63,466 bases of DNA from Candidatus Parcubacteria bacterium (GTDB lineage Bacteria; Patescibacteriota; Minisyncoccia; Phycocordibacterales; PALSA-1337). Of this stretch, positions 1,158-17,465 are shown in pieces; position 1 is the first letter of the stretch, and each line of letters opens with the position of its first letter. Position numbers and translations under genes: made by a program. Where the stretch lies: positions 1-63,466 of the forward strand of contig CAVYBN010000006.1 in NCBI GenBank assembly GCA_963766795.1, read 5' to 3'. The notes under the pieces were generated by a model. That model had not been told where the DNA came from. It did no database searches and saw only the letters and a list, made by a program, of their open reading frames with translations.

Positions 1158-2629
1158 TTATCCGACTTGTTTCGCCCCTTTCGGATATTTTATCAATGGT
1201 AATTTGCCCCGATTATCCAGGATTGATGTGACGAATCTCCATGACGCCATGATCTCGTCAGTCGAAGCAAACAGGGTCTGGTCGCCGACGAAAGCGTCGC
1301 TGATCAAACGCTCGTAATCGTTCGAGTCGCCGGAAAGCGGCAGAGAGTCGGCGTATTTGAATTTTAGCGGCTTAGGTTCGAGCTTGAACTCGGCGCCAGG
1401 AGTTTGACGAAGAATTTCAACCGAATTCCTTCATCCGGCTGAATTCGAAGCGTCAAAATGTTCTGCCCATTTGATTGAGTGCCTTCTTCTGTCCCTGCGT
1501 CAACTTTTGACTTTTGACCCTCGATCGCTGTCGAGGGCAAGCTTTTGACTTTTGAATTTCCTTTGAAATAAACATCGATCTCCGTCTTGGCCTCATTCAA
1601 AGCCTTGCCATTCTCGAGCCAGATCGGCACGCCTCTCCAACGCGCGGAGTCTATGAAGCACCGGATGCGGAAATAGGTCTCGGTCGAGGAATCGTTCTTG
1701 ACGCCGGCCTCGCCGGTATAGCCGACATATTGCCCCTTCACGACCTGCTCCGCGATCCGGCGCGGCTTGATCCTGGCGAGCTTGCGGAGAACCCGCGCGC
1801 GCTCATGCGCCACGGCCGGTCCGAGAAAGACGCCGGCCGGTCCATGGTCGCGATCGCGAGCATAGAGAGCATGTGATTCCGGCCAATCTCCCTTTAAGGC
1901 GCCCAGGGAATCGTAGAACGCACCGCGGCCTTCCATGCCGTAAGTTTCGTAGAGCTTGATGTGGATCTTGTATGAATTCGCGCCTCCAGATCGGCTCGAA
2001 TATCGAGTTGGCGAAACGGAATGCCATGATGTTTGCAAAGTCTCCTTGGCGATGCAATGGTCGATGCGGAAGATCTGCTCCTCCTTGAAGAGCTTGCCCA
2101 AGAGCTTGTCGAGGCGGCGGGCATGCTTCTGGTCGGAACCGAAGGGCTTTTCGATCAGGATGCGCGTCCAACCAGTATCGTCCGCGCACGGCACGGTCAG
2201 GCCGGAAACGGACAGTTGGTTCAGGATGCCTTCGTAGAGATGCGGCGGCACTGACAGATGGAAGAGCTTGTTCGAGCACTGGCCCCACTCCGCGTCTATG
2301 CCCTTCAGGCGCTCAGAAGCCGCGCGATGCCGCGGCATCGTCGAAGAAGCCCTGCTCGTATGACATGTGGTCGAGGAAATGCTTGATGTCCTCTTCCTTG
2401 AATCGGCCGGGCGGACGTTGATATGTCCGCGGATGAACTCGCGGAATTCCTTGCGATTGAAGGAGCGGCGCGAGAAGCCGATGACCGCGAAACGCAAAGG
2501 CAAGAGCTTCTTGGCGTAAAGACCGATCAAGGCCGGGATGAGCTTGCGTCCGGCCAAGTCGCCGGTCACGCCAAAGATCACGAATATGGTCGGATGAAGA
2601 GCGGCAGGCGATGATTGAGATACTGGCAT
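1158..2629 (-). CDS. zwf: Glucose-6-phosphate 1-dehydrogenase (several apparent frameshifts)
   Basis: IFGVTGDLAGRKLIP Rossmann motif, ILIEKPFG, RIDH, WRGVP; C-terminal YERLISDAFVGDQTLF...*, with the stop at 1158-1160 in another frame. Confidence 0.93.
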
Positions 2630-2929
2630 GGATGAAGTATAAGGTATAAAGGTATAAAAGTATAAATGTATACCCTGATACTTTTATATCTTGCGTTTAA
2701 AACTCTTCGCCCCATTTGACCCAAGCCGGATAGATGTTGCCAGCCACAAAGACGCATGGCAGGATGATGATCGCCGAGATGACCCACAACACGAAATGTA
2801 TGACCTTAGGCAAAACGCCGATCACGGCGGCAAACATATCGCCTATGGCTTTGAAGAATTCGCTCATCATAGATGTAAGAAAAACGCTAACACATTATAG
2901 TGCATTAACGCAAGAACGCCTCTTTCGTG

Positions 2930-3003
2930 TGCACCCTGCAAGATTCGAACTTGCGGCCTCGCCCGTGTGAAGGGCGCGCTCTAGCCAACTGAGCTAAGGG
3001 TGC
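2930..3003 (-). tRNA. tRNA-Val(CAC)
   Basis: Cloverleaf GCACCCT/AGGGTGC acceptor stem, anticodon arm CGCCC-TT CAC AC-GGGCG, T loop TTCGAAT. Confidence 0.95.
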
Positions 3004-3012
3004 ATCTGATTC

Positions 3013-3055
3013 TGGTCGGGCCGCCGGGAATCGAACCCGGACCGCATCCACCCCA
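3013..3055 (-). pseudogene. 3' half of tRNA-Pro (anticodon through CCA), probable att remnant
   Basis: Minus strand TGG GG TGGAT GCGGT CCGGG TTCGATT CCCGG CGGCCCG ACCA. No D arm or 5' acceptor strand upstream; an integrase is adjacent. Confidence 0.75.
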
Positions 3056-3252
3056 TGAACGCCGCGGAGATTTTTCCCGTGAATAATCTATATTTTTGAA
3101 GACGGAAATGTCTTTTTCCTCTCTAAAGTCATGTCGTTTTGACGCCCTGTTTAATGTCAGAAAATCACCCTGATTCAGGACTTCATTGAAGCCGACTGCA
3201 ATGATTAAATTAGGTTTATAATGTGAACTGTCCATGGTTGAGAGTATCAGAT

Positions 3253-4200
3253 TTAGACCAAGTTATCAAAGCTCAATTTGTTAACAGATTCAGCTAGATC
3301 TTCGACGGTAAGTGACCGCAAATATTGTTGAGTCATCCGGAGGTCGGTATGGCCGAGCAATTTCTGGATCTTATCCAGAGTCACGCCAGCAGCGGCGAGA
3401 TTGTGCGCGAACGTATGACGGAATCTATGCAGGTGGAATGAGAAACCGGACAACCCGACCAAGCGTTTAGTCCAATGTACGATCCCATCACGAGTCAGAC
3501 CAGAATCCTTATTCAAGGAAACGAAAAGAAATGGTGTCGTGTATTTACCCTTGCGTCTTTCGTCCATATAATCCCCAAGCATCGACTTCAAAATAAGATT
3601 CATCGGTATAAGCCGAGTTTGCTTTGATTTAGAAGTTTCGGCCCGTATTCGTACAGTATTTCTGTCGAATTCCAAGTCATCCGGTCTCAAACCGAGCAAT
3701 TCTCCTCTTCTAATACCGGTAAACAGAAGCGTATGCACGATTGCCAGATCTCTCTTAAGTTGCAAACGAGCCGGTGAGTTTGCGTATATAGCCGCTATGA
3801 TCTTATCGATTTCGTCTTTTCGTAACGATCTCGCGTCGTCATATTTTACTTTAGGGCGCTTATGTCTGATCTCCAATAGAGGATTTGCCGCTATCTCCTT
3901 GCGAATCAGCAGCCATTGGAAAAAAGTGTTCAGTTTCGACCAGTAGGTCCGGACCGTCGACTTCCTAACGCCGATTTCCTCGATTCTGGCTTTGCCTATA
4001 TATCTAATCCGTGTTTGCAATCTCTCAAAGAACTTTGTCATGGTAATTGTATTTATTGTCTCGACCGAGATGTCGGGAATCAGTAGTGTTAGTAATTTGA
4101 ACGCTTGCTCATATCCCCGGATCGTGTCTGGTCTGGAAAGCCTAGCGAATTTGCAGTCGCGCGTGAATTCCTCGAATTTTCCGTTTAGCTCATTGTTCAT
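3253..4200 (-). CDS. Tyrosine recombinase/integrase
   Basis: Catalytic set present: GIRRGELL (R), HRFRHT (HxxR), LGH, QQY. N-terminal SAM-like region (RPDTIRGY). Probable start MNNEL at 4200. Confidence 0.95.
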   Translation of the reverse strand: MNNELNGKFEEFTRDCKFARLSRPDTIRGYEQAFKLLTLLIPDISVETINTITMTKFFERLQTRIRYIGKARIEEIGVRKSTVRTYWSKLNTFFQWLLIRKEIAANPLLEIRHKRPKVKYDDARSLRKDEIDKIIAAIYANSPARLQLKRDLAIVHTLLFTGIRRGELLGLRPDDLEFDRNTVRIRAETSKSKQTRLIPMNLILKSMLGDYMDERRKGKYTTPFLFVSLNKDSGLTRDGIVHWTKRLVGLSGFSFHLHRFRHTFAHNLAAAGVTLDKIQKLLGHTDLRMTQQYLRSLTVEDLAESVNKLSFDNLV

Positions 4201-4316
4201 TAGTTTGTTATGGCCCTTTTCCCAACCTCGCAACTAGCACATAGCGGATCCTTTCCGGACCCTTGTTTTATATGGCTAATTTGGCGGCGGTTTTGGCACA
4301 AGGGGCATTGTGGCGT

Positions 4317-5704: not shown

Positions 5705-5896
5705 ATGCAAACAATAAAATTAGCGTTACTCGAATTCCACGAGGGTGAGTTTCAAGGAATTATGTACTCCAATATTCACGCTCGTTATAATGGCAAGATT
5801 TTAAAGTTCAAGCTAGATCGCAACAAGGTTGGTAATATCTTGAACCTAGTCGATCAGGACGTTGAAGCTGATATAGACATCGTCGCAGGCACTAAC
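5705..5896 (+). pseudogene. Small protein truncated by the IS4 insertion
   Basis: MQTIKLALLEF... reads into the IS terminal repeat at 5897. Confidence 0.5.
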
Positions 5897-7182
5897 CAGA
5901 GCTGTCCCATTAAACTCTAAGGAGGTGCATTTGGATGACTTCTGGCTCGAGCAACTTCGATACCGATGAAGATGTTAACGACAAGAGATCAATGAGTGGT
6001 CGTCGCGTAAACAAGGTCTCTCGCACCATGCGGGTAAGTTCCAGGAGTGATCGCGGGAATCTGGTCTGAAACTTGATGTAGGCAAGCAGGAGGTAGTAGA
6101 TCATGGCCACCCAGATCTGTGAAAGCACCGCGTTCTTTGAAGTCCCCAGAAATGATTTGATATGCAGATTCTGTTTGATCCATTTGAAGAAGTTCTCGAT
6201 ACGCCAGCGTTCTTTGTAGACAAGAGCGACCTCGTCACCGGAAAGTTTAAAATTGTTGGTCAGATATTCGTAAACATCTCCAGTATCGGAGAGATACCGG
6301 ACACGTCGTAATTCTTTGCCGTATTCTGACGCATGAAGTCGCCCAACCCAAATGCGCTCATCAGCCAATACGCGTCCCAAGGGTTCGCTGTGCACACCAC
6401 GTACCTTGATCAACTGATTTCCTCTGGGACGCGTAACGAAGAAAAGATCAAGCAGGTCAATCTCCTCCCACCAGCTGCAGTCAACGTAACCACGGTCAAA
6501 AACCACGATACTGCCTCGTGGTAGAGAGATTAAGAGATTTCTAGCACCAATGATGTCCGCTACCTTTCCATCGGTCACAGTGAGTACTTCTGGCATAGTG
6601 GTGCGGTTGTTGATGACCGTATGTATCTTGATTGCTCCTTTTTCATGCGAGTAGTGAGCCCAGTCAAAGAGCGAGAGGCAGAGGGTGATGGTAGTCGCAT
6701 CAAGCGCGTACAAGGGATTGTCGAATGTAAATGTCCTTTCCGGCGTGATGTCTCGACATTGCGCAAGCAGAGCGTAAAACAAATGCTCGAATATTCTGTA
6801 GTCGCGCGTATTGTTCGCTCTCGCCACCGTTGAGCGGGCGACAGATTGAACGCCGAGATGGTGCCAGACTTCCGGATTGGTGCGAAGTCCGGTCTCGATG
6901 TCGCGCAGACTTTCTTTGCCTGTTGCTTGCGCGTACAGTAGCAATACCAATTGATTCCAGACGGTCATTTTCTTCACATATCTGTCTGCGTTATGCTGTC
7001 CCACAAAACGCCTGAATTCATATTTTGGCAGAAATGCTAAAAGTTGCCCGAAAATCGTGCTAGAGTAATACATACGAAAAGCCCCGTGAGGGAAATTAAG
7101 CTCATACTAAGTCCGACAGACATAGTATGGCTTACCTCATCGGGTTTTTCTAGTTTCGGTCTATTTTAGTGGGACAGGTGTG
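5897..7182 (-). mobile_element. IS4-family insertion sequence (copy 1)
   Basis: 18-bp imperfect terminal inverted repeats CAGAGCTGTCCCATTAAA (5897-5914) and, on the reverse strand, CACACCTGTCCCACTAAA (7165-7182). No target-site duplication seen. Confidence 0.85.
5910..7073 (-). CDS. IS4-family DDE transposase (DUF4372-like N-terminus)
   Basis: YALDATTI, VVFDRGY, Y-x3-RW-x-IE-x-FF-x-WIKQ signature. Confidence 0.95.
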   Translation of the reverse strand: MYYSSTIFGQLLAFLPKYEFRRFVGQHNADRYVKKMTVWNQLVLLLYAQATGKESLRDIETGLRTNPEVWHHLGVQSVARSTVARANNTRDYRIFEHLFYALLAQCRDITPERTFTFDNPLYALDATTITLCLSLFDWAHYSHEKGAIKIHTVINNRTTMPEVLTVTDGKVADIIGARNLLISLPRGSIVVFDRGYVDCSWWEEIDLLDLFFVTRPRGNQLIKVRGVHSEPLGRVLADERIWVGRLHASEYGKELRRVRYLSDTGDVYEYLTNNFKLSGDEVALVYKERWRIENFFKWIKQNLHIKSFLGTSKNAVLSQIWVAMIYYLLLAYIKFQTRFPRSLLELTRMVRETLFTRRPLIDLLSLTSSSVSKLLEPEVIQMHLLRV

Positions 7183-7644
7183 GATATACCCCCTGTTCCT
7201 GTGGAAAGTCAAAATGGAGGGGTAAATGAGTCCTTCGTCGTTGCCACTCCTCAGGATCTCCGACCAGAGAGCAAGACGGCAGAACCACCAAAAGAGCCTC
7301 AAATTGAAGCGGTTTCAGCAACTCCCGTACAATCTGTGTCTGCGCCAGCGCCACAAACATCGGCTACTACACAGACTCAATCGCTGGCGCAACAAGATCA
7401 AACCGGATTCATCAAGAGTCTGCTCATTAAAGCTCAAGCCAAAATTCAATTCAACAAGCAGAAAAAGCTAGATAAGATCATTCTGTTTGCTCAGAAGAAG
7501 AAAATTGTTGCTAATGAGGATATTCAAATGCTTCTGCATGTCTCGAGTGCTACAGCAACCAGATATCTGGTGAAGTTAGTTCAGCAAGGTCGCCTTGCTC
7601 GCGCGGGGAACCCGCGCGACGCCAAATACCAATTCTTGCGCTGA
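7183..7644 (+). pseudogene. 5'-truncated gene with Pro/Gln-rich linker and C-terminal winged helix
   Basis: Begins at the IS edge; C-terminus NEDIQMLLHVSSATATRYLVKLVQQGRL is a typical wHTH. Confidence 0.65.
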
Positions 7645-7653
7645 AATATGTTT

Positions 7654-7680
7654 GTGGCTCAATTCCATCATTTGAGCCAT
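7654..7680 (+). repeat. 27-bp palindromic site, copy a
   Basis: GTGGCTCAA-TTCCATCAT-TTGAGCCAT. Confidence 0.8.
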
Positions 7681-7712
7681 AGGAGTTTCTGATTACCACC
7701 GAAATCTGTCGA

Positions 7713-7883
7713 GAAGCGGTCGACTTCCGCTTCTTCCATCAACCGTTTTTCGCGCCAAGCACATATCTGTATGGCGGACGCGCCCCTCGGTTGCGACCGG
7801 CAACGGAGGGAAGCGCAGGAGCCATTCGGATATGTGCAAAGGCGCGCCCATTATCATCTGTAGAAGCGGAAGTGGGCCGCTTC
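7713..7883. repeat. GAAGCGG long-hairpin element, copy 1
   Basis: GAAGCGGTCGACTTCCGCTTC ... GAAGCGGAAGTGGGCCGCTTC; related copies at 11293 and 62401. Confidence 0.85.
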
Positions 7884-7910
7884 GAACCGCGCGATTGTGA
7901 TAAAATAGTT

Positions 7911-7937
7911 GTGGCTCAATTGGTGGAATTGAGCCAC
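7911..7937 (-). repeat. 27-bp palindromic site, copy b
   Basis: GTGGCTCAA-TTGGTGGAA-TTGAGCCAC; the spacer is inverted relative to copy a. Confidence 0.85.
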
Positions 7938-8695
7938 AACCGCCGCCCCAAAAAACCAGAAGGAGGACGGCACGGCATTCCTCCCCTCAAACCCCTCCTG
8001 CCGTGCCGTCCGACACAACTTTTTTGAGATTGCCGATCAGCAGATCGTGCCGGCGGAGGCAAGAAAAAAGAAAAATAGCGTCGCCAAGCGACTCCGCATT
8101 TCATTCAAGAAAAAATCACACTTGCGGATTTTCGGCGAAAAATGTTCGAACTTCAAGTAAAAACCTCCGCAAAAATCGCAAAAAACGCAGAGTCGCCCGA
8201 AAAAGGCGAAATGCAATCACCGAGTTGAGGGCGGGGCGGAATTCCTCCCCAGACCCAGTATGAGAGAATCCAGAGCGGACAGCTTTTGTACTAGAATGCA
8301 CAGGCGGAAGCCGGCATAGCGTTCCCGCACCCTGTCACCGCCATTCGGCGGACACGACTAAGGGGGGATTGCACCGGCTTCCCCCTGTGCACGGCAATGA
8401 ACCGATAGCGGTTGGTCACCCTCCGGGGACATGACTCACGCATACTGGGTGTGGGGGAAGGCCTCCGTCCGCCCTCGCTATTTGTTTTTTGCCGACACCG
8501 CCTTCGCCTATTTTTTCGGGCGGGCGCGGGGGCAAAATATGATAGAATCGGAATGTTTCGATAGCCCTAACTGTGGATAACCAAGGGATCATCGATATCA
8601 CCATGATTTCCCCTTGATTTCTAGCGGCTAATTTGATATATTTTATTTACCAAAATGGTTAATCAAAATTGCAATACTTAACACCTCATGCTATC

Positions 8696-9037
8696 ATGAA
8701 AATATCCTTCGATAATCCAAAGCATGAAGCATTGGTCAATGACTTCGACGCTCTCTGCCGGCGGTATAACGAGAAGAGCGACGACTGCGCCACGGAGATT
8801 CTGGACACCATCAACGCATTACATGTTGCCGATTCATTATTCGATCTACCACGCATATACCATCCCCATCCGCTTAGCGGAGAGTACAAGGGATGCTTTG
8901 CAGCTAACGCAACCAAGACGCATAGAGTCATCTTCAAACCAGACCATGCAGGCGATCCGGAATTCAGGGTAGACAATCCCAAAAGCATAAAAACAATTAT
9001 TATACTGGAAATATTCAAAAATTATCATCAGAAATAA
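8696..9037 (+). CDS. higB: HigB-like toxin (plasmid-maintenance killer family)
   Basis: MKISF start, HPHPLSGEYKGCFA...HRVIF, directly upstream of a HigA-type gene. Confidence 0.75.
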   Translation: MKISFDNPKHEALVNDFDALCRRYNEKSDDCATEILDTINALHVADSLFDLPRIYHPHPLSGEYKGCFAANATKTHRVIFKPDHAGDPEFRVDNPKSIKTIIILEIFKNYHQK

Positions 9038-9044
9038 TAAAAAT

Positions 9045-10109
9045 ATGAGTTATAACCCAAACAAAGCAATACATCCGGGACATGCGCTTGCCAAAGCGTT
9101 GGATGGTGAGGGTATGACTCAAAAGAGTTTGAGCGAGAGGACCGGCCTTACGGAAAAACATATCAGCCAAATGATAAACGGCGAAGCTTCGATCACGGTC
9201 GAGACCGCTCTACTTTTAGAGAATGTCCTTGGTGGAACCGCTTCTTTCTGGATTAACCTCGAGAAACATTATCAGGAGACAAATGCTCGCTTGGAACGGC
9301 GTTCTTCGGTTGTAAATGAGCTTGGTCTTGTTTCTAAATTTCCATATAAAGAATTGGCAAAAAGAGGTTATGTCGAACAAACCGGCAACCGCGAAAAGAA
9401 AGTTGAAAATCTGTGGAAATTCTTCGGCGTGAATTCGTTGGCTTTTGTCCAAGATACGGATCCCATAGCCTACAGAAAGAAAAGCGGATTGAATGTCAAA
9501 AGCGAACATATAGCCTCGTGGCTTCGATGCGGAGAATTGGAAGCCAAAAAGATTACCTTACCGGAATATTCAGAGACGAAACTAAAGGAGCTCTTGCCGA
9601 CACTAAAGACGCTATCAACGAAAAACGCAAAAGAATATTCGAAGGCGGTAACAGAAATGTTGCACGGAGCTGGCGTCGGACTTACATATACTCCGCATTT
9701 TCCGGGAACTGGCGTCAGCGCGGCCGTGAGATGGGTTGGGAACAATCCTCTTATTCAGCTTAGCATTTACTATCCGTGGGCCGATATCTTCTGGTTCAAT
9801 CTATATCATGAAATTGGCCACCTCGTATTGCATGGCAAGAAAGATAGGTTCATAGAATTTGACGACAAAGCACTGTCTAATGTTCAGGATAAAGAGAAGG
9901 AAGCAGATGAGTTTGCTAAAGAGGGTTTGATACCGTCAAAAGCCTATGCTGAACTTATCGCCAATCCTTTGACCAAGCAAGGGGTTATTGATTTTGCGAA
10001 AAACCAAGGTATCGATACCGGCATCGTGGCCGGTAGGCTATGCCATGATAGGAGGGTAAATTGGAAAAGTGTATCTAGCTTGAGACCAAGGCTTAAATTT
10101 ACTTCGTAG
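9045..10109 (+). CDS. higA: HigA-family antitoxin: XRE HTH fused to ImmA/IrrE-type metallopeptidase
   Basis: AIHPG...MTQKSLSERTG HigA N-terminus; HEIGH zinc motif and EKEADEFA. Confidence 0.9.
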   Translation: MSYNPNKAIHPGHALAKALDGEGMTQKSLSERTGLTEKHISQMINGEASITVETALLLENVLGGTASFWINLEKHYQETNARLERRSSVVNELGLVSKFPYKELAKRGYVEQTGNREKKVENLWKFFGVNSLAFVQDTDPIAYRKKSGLNVKSEHIASWLRCGELEAKKITLPEYSETKLKELLPTLKTLSTKNAKEYSKAVTEMLHGAGVGLTYTPHFPGTGVSAAVRWVGNNPLIQLSIYYPWADIFWFNLYHEIGHLVLHGKKDRFIEFDDKALSNVQDKEKEADEFAKEGLIPSKAYAELIANPLTKQGVIDFAKNQGIDTGIVAGRLCHDRRVNWKSVSSLRPRLKFTS

Positions 10110-10159
10110 AAATTACATTGTGGTATAATATTGTCATTAATAACAAATAACATATTTAT

Positions 10160-10819
10160 ATGGATGCTGTACTATTTATCGTCGGAATTTTCTTTCTTTG
10201 GAAAGGTTCTATGAAATTTTCGAGAAAGACTGAGCCTTGGCCGAAATCAAAAAAGACGGGGCGTATTATTGGTGCGGTTCTTTTGATACCACTTGTAGCT
10301 GAATTAATATTTTTTCAATCTATTGCCGGTGTGCAGATGACAGACCATATTGTAACTCTTCCATCAGGATCCGCATACTCAAATCAACAATATAGTTTTA
10401 ATATTATTCCACCATCGGGTTGGATGGTAGATAAGAGCCCCACGAATGGAGCTGTAGTTGAATTTGTTGATAGATTGAAAGCCGTCCAAGCGATTATGGC
10501 TGTTACTACGATTAACCAACCTCAAGTCACGACTTCTTTCTTTGACACGTATGTTGCTAATGGTGTGCAACAAGCAAAAAATACGCCAGGGATTACGTTT
10601 ATAGGCAGTAATAAAATCGTGTCGGGCAGTATGTCATATTATTTAATTGAGTACAAGCAGAAAATACCCGGTGGTAGTGGCCTTTCCCACGTTCTACAAC
10701 TAAGTATGCTAGGTAAAAGTGGGACAATATTTGTAATCTCAGGCGAGAGCGATGATGCGGTCTGGACAAATTTTGAGAGTGTGATTAAAGCCTCACTGCA
10801 AAGCTTTTCTCTAAATTAA
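10160..10819 (+). CDS. Membrane-anchored PsbP-like/DUF1795-like protein
   Basis: Two N-terminal hydrophobic helices, then YSFNIIPPSGW and a C-terminal SLQSF motif. Confidence 0.6.
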   Translation: MDAVLFIVGIFFLWKGSMKFSRKTEPWPKSKKTGRIIGAVLLIPLVAELIFFQSIAGVQMTDHIVTLPSGSAYSNQQYSFNIIPPSGWMVDKSPTNGAVVEFVDRLKAVQAIMAVTTINQPQVTTSFFDTYVANGVQQAKNTPGITFIGSNKIVSGSMSYYLIEYKQKIPGGSGLSHVLQLSMLGKSGTIFVISGESDDAVWTNFESVIKASLQSFSLN

Positions 10820-10826
10820 ATCCCTC

Positions 10827-11258
10827 ATGTTCACAGATCAAGATAATGGTTTTACTATCATGCCACCGCAAGGATGGACAACTGATAAAAACAAAAGATT
10901 TGGTCTGGTTATATTTAAGGATTCAAGGTGGAGACTAAATTCATCCATAAACATTGAGTCAGAATCCACTAGTCTGAAGCTTGATGAGTATGTCGCCTAT
11001 GAGTTAGATAAGGAACAAAAAATTCCTGGTCTCTCGGTAATCAGCAAGGCGAAAATAGTTTCCGGTGGTATAGATTGTTATCTGATAAGAATGGAAGTCA
11101 AAATGCCGTACGGCGTACTTCATCAATTACAGCTCATAACTGTTACAAATGACGGGAAGTCTTTCCTTGTAACAGGTATGAGTAAAGATAAGGTCTGGGC
11201 TACAAATAAGAAATTGATCAACGATTCACTTATGACCTTTTCCATTTTTAAATCGTAA
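10827..11258 (+). CDS. PsbP-like protein, paralog of the upstream gene's soluble domain
   Basis: FTIMPPQGW..DK aligns with FNIIPPSGW..DK; both contain KIVSG..YLI and H.LQL. Confidence 0.6.
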   Translation: MFTDQDNGFTIMPPQGWTTDKNKRFGLVIFKDSRWRLNSSINIESESTSLKLDEYVAYELDKEQKIPGLSVISKAKIVSGGIDCYLIRMEVKMPYGVLHQLQLITVTNDGKSFLVTGMSKDKVWATNKKLINDSLMTFSIFKS

Positions 11259-11292
11259 ATGGTTTTTTCATCCCATTTATAAACTCAATCGA

Positions 11293-11431
11293 GAAGCGGT
11301 CGACTTCCGCTTCTCTCATCAACTGTTGTTCGCGTCCGGCGGAATGTCGGTGCGGCGAAATGCAATGAAGCCGCACGGACTGACGCAAGGACGCGCCACA
11401 TTCATCCGCTGAAGCGGAAGTGGGCCGCTTC
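11293..11431. repeat. GAAGCGG long-hairpin element, copy 2
   Basis: Same 21-nt arms as copy 1 around a different, shorter interior. Confidence 0.85.
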
Positions 11432-11462
11432 GAACAACTGCGATTCCCATGCTAGAATACAC

Positions 11463-11489
11463 GTGGCTCAATTGGTGGGAATGAGCCAC
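11463..11489 (-). repeat. 27-bp palindromic site, copy c
   Basis: GTGGCTCAA-TTGGTGGGA-ATGAGCCAC. Confidence 0.8.
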
Positions 11490-11743
11490 AAGCAATCTCT
11501 GACTTAGTTCACCTTTTCATCCTAATCCCCGCGCCCGCCGCAAAAAAACGGCAGGGCAGGCCGGCAAAAAACAAATAGCTAGGGCGGACGGAGTCCTTCC
11601 CCCACACCCCCAGGCCTCCGTCCGCCCTCTCCTCATTGTTCCGGATTTTCGGCGAAAAAGGTTCGAACTTTGTTCATGTACTGCCGCCAAGGTTTATTAA
11701 GCAAATAAAAGATTCCGCAGGCACTCTTAAAAGATTAATCTTT

Positions 11744-12493
11744 ATGAAAAAAATCGTAGCAATCGGAGGTGGCGAAATCGGTAGTCCTGGGTATCCGGTA
11801 GAAACCACCACAATTGATAAAGAGATCATCCGGCTAACTGGCAAGAAAAGCCCAAGATTGCTTTTTATTCCAACAGCAAGCTCTGACTCCAGAGGATATT
11901 ATGAGACTGTCCATAAACATTTTGGAAAAAGATTGGGATGCAGAATAGATGTGCTATGGCTGATAAAAGAAAAGCCATCTCATAAAGGAATAGAGCAAAA
12001 AGTGATGACTTCTGACATCGTGTATGTTGGCGGCGGCAATACCCTGAAGATGCTCCGAATCTGGAAGTCCTACGGATTAGATTCAATATTAAAGAAAGCC
12101 TGGAAGAAGGGCATTATCCTCTCGGGTCTCAGCGCAGGATCGATTTGCTGGTTCCGTGCCGGGACCTCCGATTCTAGACGAGATAATGATCCTGATGCTG
12201 ATCTCATAAAAGTCAGCGGGCTTGGGTTTATTCCCGCCACACATTCTCCTCATTATGATGTCGAAAAAGATCGGCGTCCCGGATTGAAGAAAATAATGCA
12301 GAAGACTTCGGGTGTCGCTATCGCCATTGATAATTGCTGTGCTATCGAGTTCGAGGACGATACATATCGTGTCATTACCTCAAAACCGAATGCAAAGGCT
12401 TACAAGGTCTATTGGAAAGCCGGGAAGTACCATGAAGAGGAGATAGTAAAAAGAAAAGACTTTTCGTTGGTATCTGATTTGTTAATGAAGTAA
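11744..12493 (+). CDS. Peptidase E (S51 family, class I glutamine amidotransferase-like)
   Basis: IVAIGGGE, FIPTASSD, YVGGGNT, GLSAGS nucleophile elbow, PHY. Confidence 0.92.
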   Translation: MKKIVAIGGGEIGSPGYPVETTTIDKEIIRLTGKKSPRLLFIPTASSDSRGYYETVHKHFGKRLGCRIDVLWLIKEKPSHKGIEQKVMTSDIVYVGGGNTLKMLRIWKSYGLDSILKKAWKKGIILSGLSAGSICWFRAGTSDSRRDNDPDADLIKVSGLGFIPATHSPHYDVEKDRRPGLKKIMQKTSGVAIAIDNCCAIEFEDDTYRVITSKPNAKAYKVYWKAGKYHEEEIVKRKDFSLVSDLLMK

Positions 12494-12619
12494 GCGGTAA
12501 GTGTTTTGTTGCATGAAGGGCCCAGATAAAGTAGCATAAAGATGGAATCAAATCGGGATTTACTTATTCATGTCGAATGAGCTGGTTTGATTAGCGCTCC
12601 TCAAAAAAAGATTCACATT

Positions 12620-13171
12620 ATGACAACTACGTTAGGACAACCACGGCTGGCTCGAACGGGGACACCAGGACCTCTCAGCGAGGCGATCATCACCGCAGTG
12701 CCAGGCAAATTCTATGCCTACTCGCCTATCTTCACGGACGGCAAACCGCTCTATGCGCTCTTGGATTGCAAGGCAAATAAATCTCGCGAGCTCGCACAAG
12801 CAGCCAAGCTCAGCCGCGAAGTTCACTTGCATTTCGGATTCGGTGGTGCGACTCCCGCCCGAGTCTCTTCGATCAAAATGATCCAAGCTGCAGGTCTGTT
12901 GGCTCGTGCCGGCGCCGAGTTCGACGATGTCTGGGTTGCCCCTGCCCGCATCGCAATCGAGGATTTTTACATCCTCTGTGCGCGGCGAGATTCAGCGAAG
13001 CTTGTGAATATTTGCAAGGCCTCACGCCCGGAATGTGGGACATCCATGGGTGTGGCACCGGGGGTCATCGTCGCTGTGATGACGAGTGCCGGCAAATACG
13101 GATTGTTCCTGGTGAAGGAACTTACGCCGATGTCGGTCAGCATTGACGCTTGTCATGTCCTGTTGCCGTAA
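12620..13171 (+). CDS. Hypothetical protein
   Basis: 183-aa ORF with higher GC than its neighbours; no motif recognised. Confidence 0.55.
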   Translation: MTTTLGQPRLARTGTPGPLSEAIITAVPGKFYAYSPIFTDGKPLYALLDCKANKSRELAQAAKLSREVHLHFGFGGATPARVSSIKMIQAAGLLARAGAEFDDVWVAPARIAIEDFYILCARRDSAKLVNICKASRPECGTSMGVAPGVIVAVMTSAGKYGLFLVKELTPMSVSIDACHVLLP

Positions 13172-13277
13172 CCTCGCTCGAACCCTGATTCAAGACTTCG
13201 TAGCCGCCAAGAGACTTGTCTCCTGGCGGATTTTTATCCCCGCGATTTTCAAATGTCAAGTTATCAACCATTATGGC

Positions 13278-13306
13278 TTGACTTTTTTACATCAGTTTTA
13301 TATACT
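13278..13306 (+). promoter_or_regulatory. Sigma70-type promoter with overlapping GTCAAG...CTTGAC inverted repeat (possible operator)
   Basis: TTGACT-17 nt-TATACT, 8 nt before the ATG at 13315. Confidence 0.7.
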
Positions 13307-13314
13307 CGTTGGAT

Positions 13315-14019
13315 ATGACCAACAAGTATATACAAAAACTCAAAGAGTTTCGTTTAAAAAGAGGTCTTTCTCAAGAGCAAGTGGCACAGGCGATCGGCGT
13401 ATCTCGTCCTACCTATACCGCCATCGAGGCGGGGAAGAAACAGGATCTCGATCTCGGTGAAGCGCAGAAACTCGCCAATTTTTTTGGCATCAGTCTAGGC
13501 GAGCTTATTTCAGGAACGATTGAGAATGTCGAGAAATATAAGCAGATGATACTTTCATATCTGCGGATGAACATCTCTAGCTCTAGAGGCGGAAAAGTGA
13601 CGAAGACCAAACTTGCCAAGCTTCTGTATCTCGCTGATTTCGCGTGGTTCTATGATCATCTGGAAAGCATGAGCGGCATGCAATATAAGAAGTTCGCATA
13701 CGGTCCGGTACCGGACACCTTCTTCCGCGTTCTCGATGAACTGGAAGATTGTGGAAAGATCAATGTTGCCAGGACGAAAGAAGGCGAAAAAGACGTGTTC
13801 TTGATCAGCGAATCAGAAAGCAACAAGAATGAAAAGATCACGACCATTTCGGGGGAAGAACAGAAACTGATGGAGAAGATCGCGGAGAAATGGAAAGACA
13901 AGAACACTCAAGATATCGTGACTTTCACGCACAACCAATTGCCATACACCATATCTCGAGATAATGAGGTGATACCTTATGAGCTCATAATTCAAGAAAA
14001 CCCCGGAGATGTCTACTAG
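13315..14019 (+). CDS. XRE HTH fused to DUF4065 (Panacea/SocA-like) antitoxin domain
   Basis: LKEFRLKRGLSQEQVAQAIGVSRPTY HTH; KLAKLLYLADF, YGPVP and W...H-type Panacea motifs. Confidence 0.88.
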   Translation: MTNKYIQKLKEFRLKRGLSQEQVAQAIGVSRPTYTAIEAGKKQDLDLGEAQKLANFFGISLGELISGTIENVEKYKQMILSYLRMNISSSRGGKVTKTKLAKLLYLADFAWFYDHLESMSGMQYKKFAYGPVPDTFFRVLDELEDCGKINVARTKEGEKDVFLISESESNKNEKITTISGEEQKLMEKIAEKWKDKNTQDIVTFTHNQLPYTISRDNEVIPYELIIQENPGDVY

Positions 14020-14404
14020 CTATACCGTCATTGTTGAACGCTTTGCCGAGCGTCACTTCATAAAGAGTTTCTCAAAAAAGTACAAGGGCGCTTGGGATAT
14101 CACATGGACGGGCATTCTGGCGCAATTCAGAAGTTTCGACGAGCTATTCAAGTCATCTATCGCCGAGACGATCGTTCGCGATTCCGGTCTCAAAATATGC
14201 AAAGTCGAATTCCGTGTTCATGGTACATCTGTATCTCGTCATGGCTCAGGTAATAGATGCATCGTAGCGATCCATGAAAACACAAACACGATCTCTGTTC
14301 TTTTGGTATATGGCAAAACGGATCTGAGCGGCCACAATGAGACTCTGGAGTGGAAGAGGTTGATCGCGGAGAATTATCCGGAGTATAAGGAGCATTGTAA
14401 ATAA
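14009..14404 (+). CDS. Putative RelE/HigB-fold toxin paired with the Panacea antitoxin
   Basis: Overlaps the antitoxin stop; R-CIV...LLVYGKTD pattern of RelE-like RNases. Confidence 0.55.
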   Translation: MSTSYTVIVERFAERHFIKSFSKKYKGAWDITWTGILAQFRSFDELFKSSIAETIVRDSGLKICKVEFRVHGTSVSRHGSGNRCIVAIHENTNTISVLLVYGKTDLSGHNETLEWKRLIAENYPEYKEHCK

Positions 14405-14598
14405 CAAAACCATGTCTGAATATTACCTCACAAAGAGTTTAATGGGTGGGATCGTTAACGATTTAAAAAATGCAGATAAGGCATATGAGGATTGGAGCTC
14501 TGATAACTAAGATGTAGTGAGCTCAGAATCATTATCGACGACAAGGAAGATTGAAACGCTCCGGAGCCGGCAGGGATGTCGTTTACACGCCAAGCTAA

Positions 14599-14625
14599 TC
14601 GGGTCATTCCCACCATTTGACCCGA
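14599..14625 (+). repeat. 27-bp palindromic site, copy e (variant arms)
   Basis: TCGGGTCAT-TCCCACCAT-TTGACCCGA; spacer nearly identical to the reverse of copy c. Confidence 0.65.
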
Positions 14626-14795
14626 TTAAGTCTTCTCATTCCAAAACACTTTTTCGGCTCTGTAATCTTGCGCACCAACGGGTTCGGCTGATAAAATGCA
14701 TCCATTCCTGTCTCTCGGGTCCGCGACGACGAGAGGCCTGCCCAGGAACGGTCACCTAATCCTAAACGCCCAAGTGCTCCTTGGGCACATCATCC

Positions 14796-15353
14796 ATGTT
14801 CAACCGCTTGCGGCAGATCTGCCGCGTTTTTTGGCCTTTCGTTCTGCTCGTCGCGTTGATCGTGCTCGTCACGGCCATGGTCACGGTCCGGATCGCTATC
14901 GCCCGCTATGATTCACAGTTCAGAGTCGTCTATTCGTTGGATCGCAGGGACGTAGACGGCGAGATCATCCGTCTCGTCAACGGAGCCGACCGCTATGTCT
15001 ACTTCGCCGTCTATTATTTCTCCAAGACCGACATCGCCGACGCTCTGATCCGCGCCAAACAGCGCGGGTTGGAAGTGCGAGGCATCACCGACGCCGCTGC
15101 AAGCCAAGACGCCAACAAGGCCGTCTTGGCTTTGCTGGGGAAGGCCGGCATCGCCATCGAGACGCAGAAGCACCAAGACGGAATCATGCACATGAAGGCC
15201 GTCGTCACCGACAAAGCCTACGCTTCCGGCAGTTACAATTGGACGGATTCCGCTACGGAAGCCAACGACGAGGTCTTGGAAATAGGAACGGACAAATCCG
15301 TTCATGACCAATATCTGGCGATCATCAAGAGAGTATTGGAAGTTAATCGTTGA
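14796..15353 (+). CDS. Membrane-anchored phospholipase D/Nuc-like protein (single HKD)
   Basis: N-terminal TM helix; HMKAVVTD (HxKxxxxD) followed by SGSYNWT. Confidence 0.9.
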   Translation: MFNRLRQICRVFWPFVLLVALIVLVTAMVTVRIAIARYDSQFRVVYSLDRRDVDGEIIRLVNGADRYVYFAVYYFSKTDIADALIRAKQRGLEVRGITDAAASQDANKAVLALLGKAGIAIETQKHQDGIMHMKAVVTDKAYASGSYNWTDSATEANDEVLEIGTDKSVHDQYLAIIKRVLEVNR

Positions 15354-15358
15354 AAACC

Positions 15359-15886
15359 ATGAATACAAAAAACTTCATATTGAGATGCAAAGATCTTGCC
15401 GCTAAAAACAAAGATGGACTATTAAAATACAGAAGCTACGCGTTGATAGCGATTGGAATTGTGACGATTGCCATGCTTGCTCTCGGAGCTTACTGGTTCG
15501 CGCACGCAAACGGCGAATCGAAAGGCGTCGACGGATCGGCTGACGTCTCTCCGTCTTCTTCGAACCAATATCAAACGACTGCAAATGCCGCGGATCCCGG
15601 GGTCACGCCGGAATATGATTATTCGGAAGCGCCAAAACATATCGGCGAGCGCGCTACTGTCCGCGGCACGGTCGAGAAGATCTTCACCGCGAAGAGCGGA
15701 GTGACTTTCTTCGATTTTTGCCAAGGCTTCGATGCTTGCCCGTTCGGGGCGGTCGTCTTCGCTTCTGATCTGAAGTCGTTCGGAGATCTGAAGAGATACC
15801 AGCGGGCCGTCAAGCTCTACGGCGTCATCAAGTCGTATCAAGGCAAAGCCGAGATGGTCTTGAACGGTCCCGACCAGATCGAATGA
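15359..15886 (+). CDS. Membrane-anchored OB-fold nucleic-acid-binding protein
   Basis: TM helix, Ser/Thr linker, EAPKHIGERATVRGTV...GVIKSYQGKAEMVL OB-like pattern. Confidence 0.65.
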   Translation: MNTKNFILRCKDLAAKNKDGLLKYRSYALIAIGIVTIAMLALGAYWFAHANGESKGVDGSADVSPSSSNQYQTTANAADPGVTPEYDYSEAPKHIGERATVRGTVEKIFTAKSGVTFFDFCQGFDACPFGAVVFASDLKSFGDLKRYQRAVKLYGVIKSYQGKAEMVLNGPDQIE

Positions 15887-15905
15887 CTGCCGTTCGAGGC
15901 CGCTT

Positions 15906-15932
15906 GTGGCTTATTCCAACCGTTTGAGCCAC
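15906..15932 (+). repeat. 27-bp palindromic site, copy d (degenerate)
   Basis: GTGGCTTAT-TCCAACCGT-TTGAGCCAC, 19 nt after the OB-fold gene stop. Confidence 0.6.
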
Positions 15933-15961
15933 AGCCTTTGTCGTGCTACAATATCGCCATC

Positions 15962-16255
15962 ATGATGCATTCATACGGCAGCTATTCGTGGTGGGGTCCG
16001 GCGCCGGTCGGTAGCTTTGGAGTCTTCGGGGTCTTGGGCATATTGCTCTTGGCCGTATTCCTGATAGCGGTGATCGCCTTGAAGGGCTACGCTCTCTGGT
16101 ACGCGGCTAAGCGCGGCGAAAAGTGGTGGTTCATCGCCATTCTCGTCGTCAATACCGCCGGCATCCTCGAGATCGTCTACTTGGTATTTTTCGTGAAGAA
16201 GTGGCATAGGAGGTTGAAGGCGGAGGATCGAAACCGTGACCAATCTTCGCAGTAA
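15962..16255 (+). CDS. DUF5652-like small membrane protein
   Basis: KGYALWYAAKRGEKWWFIAILVVNTAGILEIVYL pattern. Confidence 0.8.
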   Translation: MMHSYGSYSWWGPAPVGSFGVFGVLGILLLAVFLIAVIALKGYALWYAAKRGEKWWFIAILVVNTAGILEIVYLVFFVKKWHRRLKAEDRNRDQSSQ

Positions 16256-17465
16256 ATTCATTCACGGCATTTACAAGGGTGTTTTGAAGCCTATCTTTTT
16301 CCGCATGGATCCCGAAGCCATTCACGAGCGCATGACGCGCGTTGGCGTGATGCTTGGCGCTTATTCATTGACACGCTCTCTAACGGCTGGATCATTCGAG
16401 TACGAGAATGAGGCGCTCCGTCAAAATGTACTTGGCATAGATTTCAGGAATCCCGTCGGCTTGGCCGCCGGCTTCGATAAGGACGCGCAATTGACTGACA
16501 TATTGCCGGCCGTCGGCTTCGGCTTCGCGGAGGTCGGTTCCATCACCGGCGAACCGTGCGCCGGCAATCCCAAGCCGCGCCTCTGGCGATTGCCAAAATC
16601 GAAAAGCTTGGTCGTCTATTATGGATTGAAGAATGAAGGTTGCGAGGCGATCTCGGCCAGACTTGAAAGGAAGATCCAGGACAACCTTGAAAAGAAGCTT
16701 CAAAACGATTCGCAAGACAGACTCAAAGATGGATTGCAAAACAAGCTCCAAGACGATCTTCAAAGAAAGGTTCAAAATGGATTCCAACCGAAATTGTCCT
16801 CGATCCCGATCGGCGTAAGCGTGGCGATGACCAATTGCCGCGCGAATCTTGAAATTAGCAATGCTGTCGATGATTTCGCCAAAGCCTTCAAAGTCATGGA
16901 GCCATACGGCGATTATGTAACGGTGAATATCAGCTGTCCCAACACCGAGAGCGGTCAGCCGTTCATTCAGCCCGATAATCTTGAAAAGCTTTTCGTCGTT
17001 CTCGACAAGATCCCGACTGTGAAGCCGATCTTCATCAAGCTTTCGCCTGACATGGATCGCGCGGAGCTCGACGCTGTCTTAGATGTCGCTCGCTCGCATC
17101 GCATTCAAGGCATCATCACCACCAACCTGACCAAGAAGAGGGATAATCCGAAGATCCTTGACGTGAATGTGCCGACGAAAGGCGGCATGAGCGGCAAAGT
17201 CGTCCAAGATCTGACCGACGACATGCTGGCGTACATTTACAAGAAAGAAGGGAAGCGGTTCATCCTCGTCGGCAATGGAGGCGTCTTCACGGCCGAGGAC
17301 GCGTATAAGAAAATCAGGCTTGGCGCGTCGCTCGTCCAATTGATCACCGGCATGATCTTCGAAGGCCCACAGGTCATCGGCGAGATCAATCAGGGTTTGG
17401 TCAGGTTGCTCAAAAGAGACGGATTTACGAGCATTCAACAAGCAATCGGGGCTGATAACTGCTAA
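16236..17465 (+). CDS. pyrD: Dihydroorotate dehydrogenase (quinone, class 2) with a repetitive internal insertion
   Basis: NPVGLAAGFDKD, NISCPNT, IKLSPD, GGMSG, SLVQLITGMIFEGP. Confidence 0.95.
   Translation: MTNLRSKFIHGIYKGVLKPIFFRMDPEAIHERMTRVGVMLGAYSLTRSLTAGSFEYENEALRQNVLGIDFRNPVGLAAGFDKDAQLTDILPAVGFGFAEVGSITGEPCAGNPKPRLWRLPKSKSLVVYYGLKNEGCEAISARLERKIQDNLEKKLQNDSQDRLKDGLQNKLQDDLQRKVQNGFQPKLSSIPIGVSVAMTNCRANLEISNAVDDFAKAFKVMEPYGDYVTVNISCPNTESGQPFIQPDNLEKLFVVLDKIPTVKPIFIKLSPDMDRAELDAVLDVARSHRIQGIITTNLTKKRDNPKILDVNVPTKGGMSGKVVQDLTDDMLAYIYKKEGKRFILVGNGGVFTAEDAYKKIRLGASLVQLITGMIFEGPQVIGEINQGLVRLLKRDGFTSIQQAIGADNC

Follow-up and report, generated by a model that had tools for sequence, protein, structure and literature searches.

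A dispersed palindrome family associated with a winged-helix gene in Parcubacteria: a candidate mobile gene-site pair

A family of short palindromes, here named HP, was analysed in a Candidatus Parcubacteria bacterium, starting from a stretch of 63,466 nucleotides (the window) that represents contig C6 of a genome of 916 kb in 18 contigs (G000). Sequence comparisons among relatives lead us to favour, with some confidence, the view that HP is a mobile palindrome resembling the repetitive extragenic palindromes (REP) and the Rickettsia palindromic elements (RPE), and that it forms a co-evolving pair with a small protein carrying a winged helix-turn-helix (wHTH) domain. This protein is the likely cognate DNA-binding partner of HP. 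The ancestral unit consists of a wHTH gene whose stop codon is closely followed by an HP; in many cases a long hairpin (LH) of 170 nt and another HP are added to it. Parcubacteria and the Candidate Phyla Radiation (CPR) as a whole possess tiny genomes whose repeats and mobile DNA are little described. If true, the pairing of HP and wHTH would provide a new handle on gene gain and loss in reduced genomes, as well as a testable protein-hairpin recognition pair. A literature search turned up nothing on the HP family, which is apparently undescribed; in this respect the first-pass annotation of the window, where an undescribed cassette system was suggested, is supported.

The HP core reads GGCTCA-WW-TCCACCA-WW-TGAGCC, with stems of 9-14 bp. 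The strand with the loop TCCACCA is referred to as the C-form and its complement, TGGTGGA, as the G-form. A search of the window with the consensus GTGGCTCAWTYCCACCAWTTGAGCCAC, allowing up to three mismatches, yields matches at 7654(+), 7911(-), 11463(-) and 15906(+), and a structure-based scan adds a fifth site at 14596-14628(+), in which compensating arms TAATCGGGTCA/TGACCCGATTA surround TTCCCACCATT. At the same threshold, 100 dinucleotide-preserving shuffles gave zero consensus matches. The five sites of the first-pass annotation thus exist in a number far above chance, and both the orientations assigned to them and the compensating arm changes noted for the copy placed at 14599 proved correct. 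Its description of a 9-9-9 architecture needs correction for two copies, in which the stems exceed 9 bp: 7908-7940 (13 bp) and 14596-14628 (11 bp). Nor are the sites confined to the island in which they had been noticed, as the whole genome contains at least 16 copies on nine contigs: C1 (2), C6 (5), C7, C8, C9 (2), C10, C12, C15 and C16 (2). Within the window, HP1 (7654-7680, + strand) lies 10 nt 3' of a wHTH stop codon and presents the C-form on the + strand with its loop mutated to TCCATCA, followed by HP2 (7908-7940, - strand), which is inverted relative to HP1. The copy at 11463-11489 (- strand) closes a second LH in the HP2 position and precedes a conserved GC hairpin and a GGATTTTCGGCGAAAAAGGTTCGAAC motif. 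The copy at 14596-14628 (+ strand) overlaps the stop codon of a wHTH relic, and its arms recur at C7 67410 and C12 28618. Finally, a degenerate copy at 15906-15932 (+ strand), which has a single mismatch in its arms and TCCAACC as its loop, is found 20 nt after an open reading frame (ORF) of 178 aa; this loop variant recurs 3' of wHTH genes in two other genomes (G017, L019; G045, L357).

The distribution of HP was surveyed in 41 relatives, including 25 genomes of the genus, in 301 genomes of the order, in species-representative genomes and in viral contigs. Among the 41 relatives, HP is present in eight of the 25 genus genomes and in one other family, and exactly the same eight genus genomes contain the wHTH domain (8/8 with HP, 0/17 without). 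Order-wide, nine of the 301 genomes carry HP and six of these nine carry the wHTH family (seven with a borderline match), which occurs in 38 genomes in total. An exact 23-mer was adopted for further searches because a loose 15-base pattern, applied to genome and viral collections and then dropped, gave single chance matches in unrelated taxa. The 23-mer identified 59 loci in species representatives, all in Patescibacteria-type metagenome-assembled genomes (MAGs), some of them mislabelled, and none in the viral contigs. The placement of 106 non-redundant HPs reflects the same linkage: 40 follow a wHTH stop codon at a distance of 0-37 nt, 20 are neighbours of an LH, six are contained in conserved genes and the remaining 40 lie elsewhere between genes. 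Furthermore, HP arm sequence and wHTH protein subfamily diverge in step. The subfamily ..GRLARVGNPRDAKYQF is accompanied by the arm TGTGGC, ..GRLNRTDxSHWVKY by GCGGC...GATCCGC, ..EGKIxQxGKTGxSVFYTKI by AACGGC and ..EGRLKxESRRGGAFYQL by ATTGGC. Even wHTH homologues at 40-55% identity keep a 3' hairpin with the loop T-N-CACCA (TACACCA or TGCACCA) and quite different arms.

The wHTH protein comprises a disordered N-terminus rich in P, S, Q and E, one long helix and a C-terminal winged helix-turn-helix. The predicted fold of long helix and winged helix (predicted local distance difference test, pLDDT, 83) is nearest to winged helices that bind DNA, among them MarR and ArsR, although a fold search with this model returned generic winged-helix matches alone, none of them at E <= 0.001. 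All homologues in databases are annotated as 'hypothetical', and the organism names they bear assign the bacterium to Candidatus Taylorbacteria. The gene is multi-copy, patchily distributed and often pseudogenised. In the window, the gene at 7180-7644 (+ strand) belongs to the subfamily ending ...GRLARAGNPRDAKYQFLR, shows a weak Pfam MarR match and matches the hidden Markov model (HMM) of the domain at 1.8e-47. An insertion sequence on its left has cut off the 5' part of the gene at about codon 55; aligned to the intact copy on C1, homology starts from codon 55 at window position 7190. This IS4-family element (5893-7186, - strand) encodes a transposase with DDE_Tnp_1 and DUF4372 (5910-7073) and has 22-nt terminal inverted repeats, which bear no resemblance to HP, so that its ends were rejected as the source of the palindrome. 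The relic at 14521-14598 (+ strand) is the 3' end of a gene of another subfamily (..RRQGRLKRSGAGRDVVYTPS and stop codon), with HMM matches to positions 59-74 and stop codons upstream; a frameshifted wHTH copy of the same subfamily and with the same HP arms is found in G017 (L015). HP modules constitute a practical marker because they break assemblies, with many of the wHTH homologues on contigs of about 1 kb and two of the G000 HPs at contig ends.

Six HP copies are located in frame within genes, namely two in DnaK tails (one in G000, one in a different MAG) and one each in TsaD, TsaE, valyl-tRNA synthetase (ValRS) and an S-adenosylmethionine (SAM) methyltransferase. All six present the G-form on the coding strand, which is read as GSNGGNEP. 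In comparison to the G000 orthologues, the proteins contain 11 (TsaE), 21 (SAM methyltransferase) and 15 (TsaD) extra residues, whereas the alignment of ValRS around GSNGGNEP is ambiguous and lacks a clean gap. Inserts that are 11-21 residues longer than the orthologues require insertion and not point mutation. The DnaK copy of G000 is a weaker case than the other in-frame copies because the native tails of relatives already hold SNGGN-like sequence resembling a decayed HP; the nearest DnaK tail in databases is 72% identical. From the wHTH-HP unit, HP has reached further intergenic locations and also, in frame, essential genes. Distinct from HP, an abundant repeat with a length of about 28 nt (TGTCATTCCCGCGAAAGCCGGAATCC) was observed just 3' of dnaK (C15 14779-14807) and in dozens of places in G000 and its relatives. 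Two coding regions, GatB (C7 65934-67385) and a SAM methyltransferase (C1 39690-40788), seem to contain this repeat in frame, translated as ..VIPAKAGIQ...

The extended unit is represented in the window by an LH (7711-7885, + strand) with the arms GAGAAGCGGTCGACTTCCGCTTCT and GAAGCGGAAGTGGGCCGCTTCGA, located between HP1 and HP2. Since HP1 is inverted relative to HP2, HP1-LH-HP2 is one palindrome of about 290 nt, and the region 7645-7945 folds as a single foldback (dG -159.8 kcal/mol, z -10.9). The full module follows the order wHTH gene, HP1, N5-TTTCTGA, LH, TGnTAGAAT, HP2, GC hairpin with a C-rich loop and GGATTTTCGGCGAAAAAAGTTCGAAC. This module was found again on C1, C9, C16 and C10 as well as in relatives, and its components are also encountered individually. 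About nine LH copies exist in the genome, with or without an adjoining HP; their arms are invariant over 21-24 nt and their interior covaries. The second LH of the window (11291-11433, + strand), directly 3' of a PsbP-like gene, lacks both a wHTH gene and HP1, and further copies are located at 62399-62571 of the window, C1 28168-28343 and C16 24296-24455. Such composite wHTH-HP-LH-HP units and their relics probably accumulate in accessory DNA, which would account for the apparent partition of the island into modules. The earlier proposal that the sites themselves partition the island found no support, given that most HP copies are tied to the wHTH gene and others are in frame in essential genes. 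The conserved motif GGATTTTCGGCGAAAAAAGTTCGAACTT (8126-8153, 11643-11670 and about nine more places in the genome) follows CAAAAACAAATAG and a GC hairpin with a C-rich loop at a distance of about 80 nt. The pair of CAAAAACAAATAG-hairpin and GGATTTTCGGCGAAAAAAGTTCGAACTT usually precedes the next gene directly and might serve as a promoter or leader.

The stems of HP are maintained by covariation. In 103 distinct 41-mers, the 11-bp helix is 88.9% paired, compared to 20.6-40.1% for partners displaced by 1-3 columns, figures that have to be read with the caveat that the search pattern had fixed part of the stem. Double changes preserve the stem, with UA in 53 and CG in 45 sequences at pair 9-33 and GC in 58, AU in 15 and UA in 15 at pair 8-34, and hybrid arms are rare (5/103 at the most variable pair). 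The loop behaves differently from the arms: after the wHTH stop codon it is found as the C-form in 22 and as the G-form in 18 cases, with arms and flanks identical in both forms, which implies that the 11-nt centre inverts in place. In perfect palindromes, inversion of the centre through intrastrand template switching is an established behaviour, and the HP loop would invert in place by such template switching at the hairpin. Any function of HP would then act on DNA regardless of orientation. A conserved loop that is functional in either orientation speaks against both a directional RNA element and a directional recombination core. The asymmetric core had initially been viewed as a spacer of the recombinase type; its asymmetry is indeed conserved, but it keeps no fixed orientation to the flanks. 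The wHTH protein would probably bind as a dimer, either to the palindrome or to the hairpin once extruded; the pairing recalls the gene for the REP-associated tyrosine transposase (RAYT), which is flanked by REPs.

Among known systems, the REPs of proteobacteria, their hairpin-forming doublets (REPINs) and RAYT, together termed REPtrons, offer the closest parallels on several counts. HPs are likewise short palindromes (27-41 nt) that are mostly extragenic and dispersed, the 290-nt foldback of HP1-LH-HP2 corresponds to the inverted doublets that form a larger hairpin, and the repeats flank and strictly co-occur with one associated gene. In contrast to RAYT, this gene encodes a non-catalytic winged-helix protein and not a Y1 HUH transposase. 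HPs also differ from REPs in number (5-20 per genome versus hundreds), in their invariant part, which is the loop and not a flanking GTAG, and in their occurrence in frame within essential genes. The latter feature is shared with RPEs, palindromes that likewise lie in frame in conserved protein genes and add a short hydrophilic peptide. However, RPEs are larger (100-150 bp), occur in Rickettsia alone and lack an associated gene, whereas HPs measure 27-41 bp, are tied to wHTH and have no match in Rfam. Several observations weigh against a mobile HP-wHTH pair. Neither nuclease nor transposase features are present in the wHTH protein, and the analysis identified no catalytic protein for HP mobility. 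Y1 (HUH) transposases (PF01797) are enriched yet unspecific, being present in 7/8 genus genomes with HP and 6/17 without, and their genes are non-adjacent to HP, except for one about 1.8 kb away in G014; a RAYT-type partner was rejected on account of this lack of specificity. The copy number is low for a REP family, and the DnaK copy of G000 may be an old insert or in part a native G/S/N-rich tail. Symmetric arm changes fit a dimer-bound duplex palindrome co-evolving with the protein as well as they fit a hairpin, and a REP/RPE-like element leaves the invariant asymmetric loop unexplained. Finally, the position of HP at the exact border of variable cargo in some genomes fits a recombination or landing-pad role.

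Such borders form the basis of an alternative in which HPs are site-specific recombination sites that bound exchangeable cassettes, comparable to dif modules or integrons, served by the host Xer or another recombinase and with wHTH perhaps as an accessory protein; this we consider quite unlikely. HP-cargo-HP arrangements recur, both in the window (7911-11489 and 14596-15932) and in relatives, where HPs enclose a toxin-antitoxin (TA) pair in G017 (L006) and RhuM/Fic in Komeilibacteria (L307), with a further instance in G017 (L015). Orphan HPs often adjoin accessory genes, including HsdR (type I restriction), an EcoRI-type methylase, RhuM/Fic, Bro-N and an NTase-binding protein, but they adjoin core genes too. 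The spacer between rpsG and fusA, which is variable in the genus and contains an HP in three genomes, is an accessory-gene hot spot within a core operon. Here, homology between G017 and G001 runs through the HP and ends there, followed by two different HigB-like TA pairs, with a second HP behind the pair of G017; in G000 the spacer (C8 75089-78351, str operon) contains five extra ORFs and an HP at C8 77291. In addition, directly repeated HP units differ in whether an LH and one HP lie between them (L024 versus L013 and L014), and a small ORF with an in-frame TAA, presumably DUF6429-like, forms an insert with a complete HP on one side and a half HP (TGAGCCAC + gcatgtTTCTGA) on the other at L009 (G016:C4 ~1530-1860, reverse strand). 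HP pairs around ORF cargo are direct in seven and inverted in two cases, a hand count that is not significant (p ~0.09). Like the pdif (XerC/D) modules of Acinetobacter plasmids and integron attC sites, HPs consist of two arms and a short centre, bracket some accessory genes including TA pairs and are found beside cargo that differs between genomes. In pdif, however, conserved, recombinase-bound arms of about 11 bp surround a centre of 6-8 bp, while HP has an invariant centre of 7-11 nt and covarying outer arms. Compared to attC sites (57-141 bp, with R''/L''-L'/R' boxes and extrahelical bases), HPs are near-perfect palindromes of 27-41 nt in which no R/L boxes or extrahelical bases were found; a single copy has GTT/AAC at its outer ends, in the wrong register. 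A system of either kind is further opposed by the free flipping of the core relative to its flanks, by the copies inside essential genes and by the rarity of hybrid arms, and no co-distributed recombinase was found. No recombinase is consistently near HPs, and generic Xer-like genes are present in genomes both with and without HP. The tyrosine recombinase at 3253-4233 (- strand), which the first-pass annotation had proposed to serve the sites, is itself generic and Xer-like. It scores under every NCBIfam cut-off; the model of the integron integrase IntI, an enzyme with an extra attC-binding domain, gives 45.1 versus 265 bits (TIGR02249), and the match covers just the C-terminal 40 residues. 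Its distribution does not follow that of HP, and its best identity to anything in the other genomes with HP is 31%, so that it was rejected as a partner. It belongs to a segment of G6PD, an 84-aa ORF and integrase that exists three times in the genome (window 1364-4233; C18 604-3434; C5 2-2764), the C18 and C5 copies being decayed by stop codons or frameshifts. Of the suggested undescribed cassette system, there remain an undescribed family, recurrent HP-cargo-HP arrangements and some cargo borders, but neither service by the integrase nor the partition role. In some relatives the sites do bound variable cargo, yet most copies are linked to the wHTH gene family. The facts on cargo borders fit a landing-pad or exchange role and, equally well, the build-up of a selfish repeat in accessory DNA. 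For the island (2.6-16.2 kb), synteny was uninformative, as relatives are distant (about 57% aa identity for G6PD and 66% for DHODH) and the genes unlinked.

Two further alternatives dispense with mobility or with a role in DNA. HPs might be immobile duplex binding sites for wHTH dimers, similar to operators or centromeres, that constitute a small regulon or a partition-like system and gained extra copies via module duplication, which appears unlikely. The sites are palindromic, the long helix preceding the wHTH fold could dimerise according to the model, and the arms diverge in step with the protein. The location of a site beside the gene of its own protein also recalls parS/ParB or Ter/Tus, where further copies are dispersed and some lie in genes. 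This likeness ends at the wHTH gene, which is multi-copy, patchy and often pseudogenised, and at the HP sites, which spread by insertion; in-frame inserts of 11-21 residues beyond the orthologues in unrelated essential genes are difficult to reconcile with immobile sites. HPs are found 3' of the wHTH gene and not at promoters, the half-site centres, about 17 bp apart, would be off-phase for binding on one helix face, and a symmetric dimer would not predict a conserved asymmetric centre. A Ter-like fork trap was rejected, as HP positions and orientations in the complete G017 genome exhibit no clustering, replichore pattern or bias. Action in RNA is, in our estimation, very unlikely; here, HPs would form 3' stem-loops that terminate or stabilise transcripts, or a protein-bound hairpin that regulates the wHTH mRNA. 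Many HPs lie just 3' of stop codons and their stems are stable, and winged helices can bind RNA hairpins, as in the binding of SECIS by SelB. One copy (7941-7907, minus strand), which is followed by ATTTTATCAC, scored as terminator-like, so that the earlier statement that the sites lack U-tracts applies mostly but not to all of them. This copy is the only one of the five in the window flagged as an intrinsic terminator and it lies on the strand opposite to the upstream gene; together with the random loop orientation, this bears out the earlier view that the sites are not ordinary terminators. An RNA function is also opposed by the occurrence of both loop orientations at the same homologous position (22 versus 18), for which the RNA loop would be either the sequence or its complement, and by HPs within coding regions and 5' of genes. 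An E-value scan of 7000-16500 against Rfam gave no family matching HP or LH. Returning to the mobile HP-wHTH pair, a bolder version of it seems possible although doubtful: wHTH gene and hairpin would represent a new self-propagating gene-site pair in CPR, a REPtron without HUH transposase, in which the non-catalytic wHTH protein recognises hairpins with the invariant T-N-CACCA loop, co-evolving with them, and the dispersed hairpins serve as landing pads or exchange points for TA, Fic and restriction-modification cassettes.

The GCGG and TAATCGGG subfamilies (for example C9 82494-82530, L015, L003) include some copies with an extra 5' arm before the HP, separated by a 12-nt spacer (GATGGCAGAACC). 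The extra arm provides the 3' arm of HP with two alternative partners, and this arrangement is kept across subfamilies with different arms.

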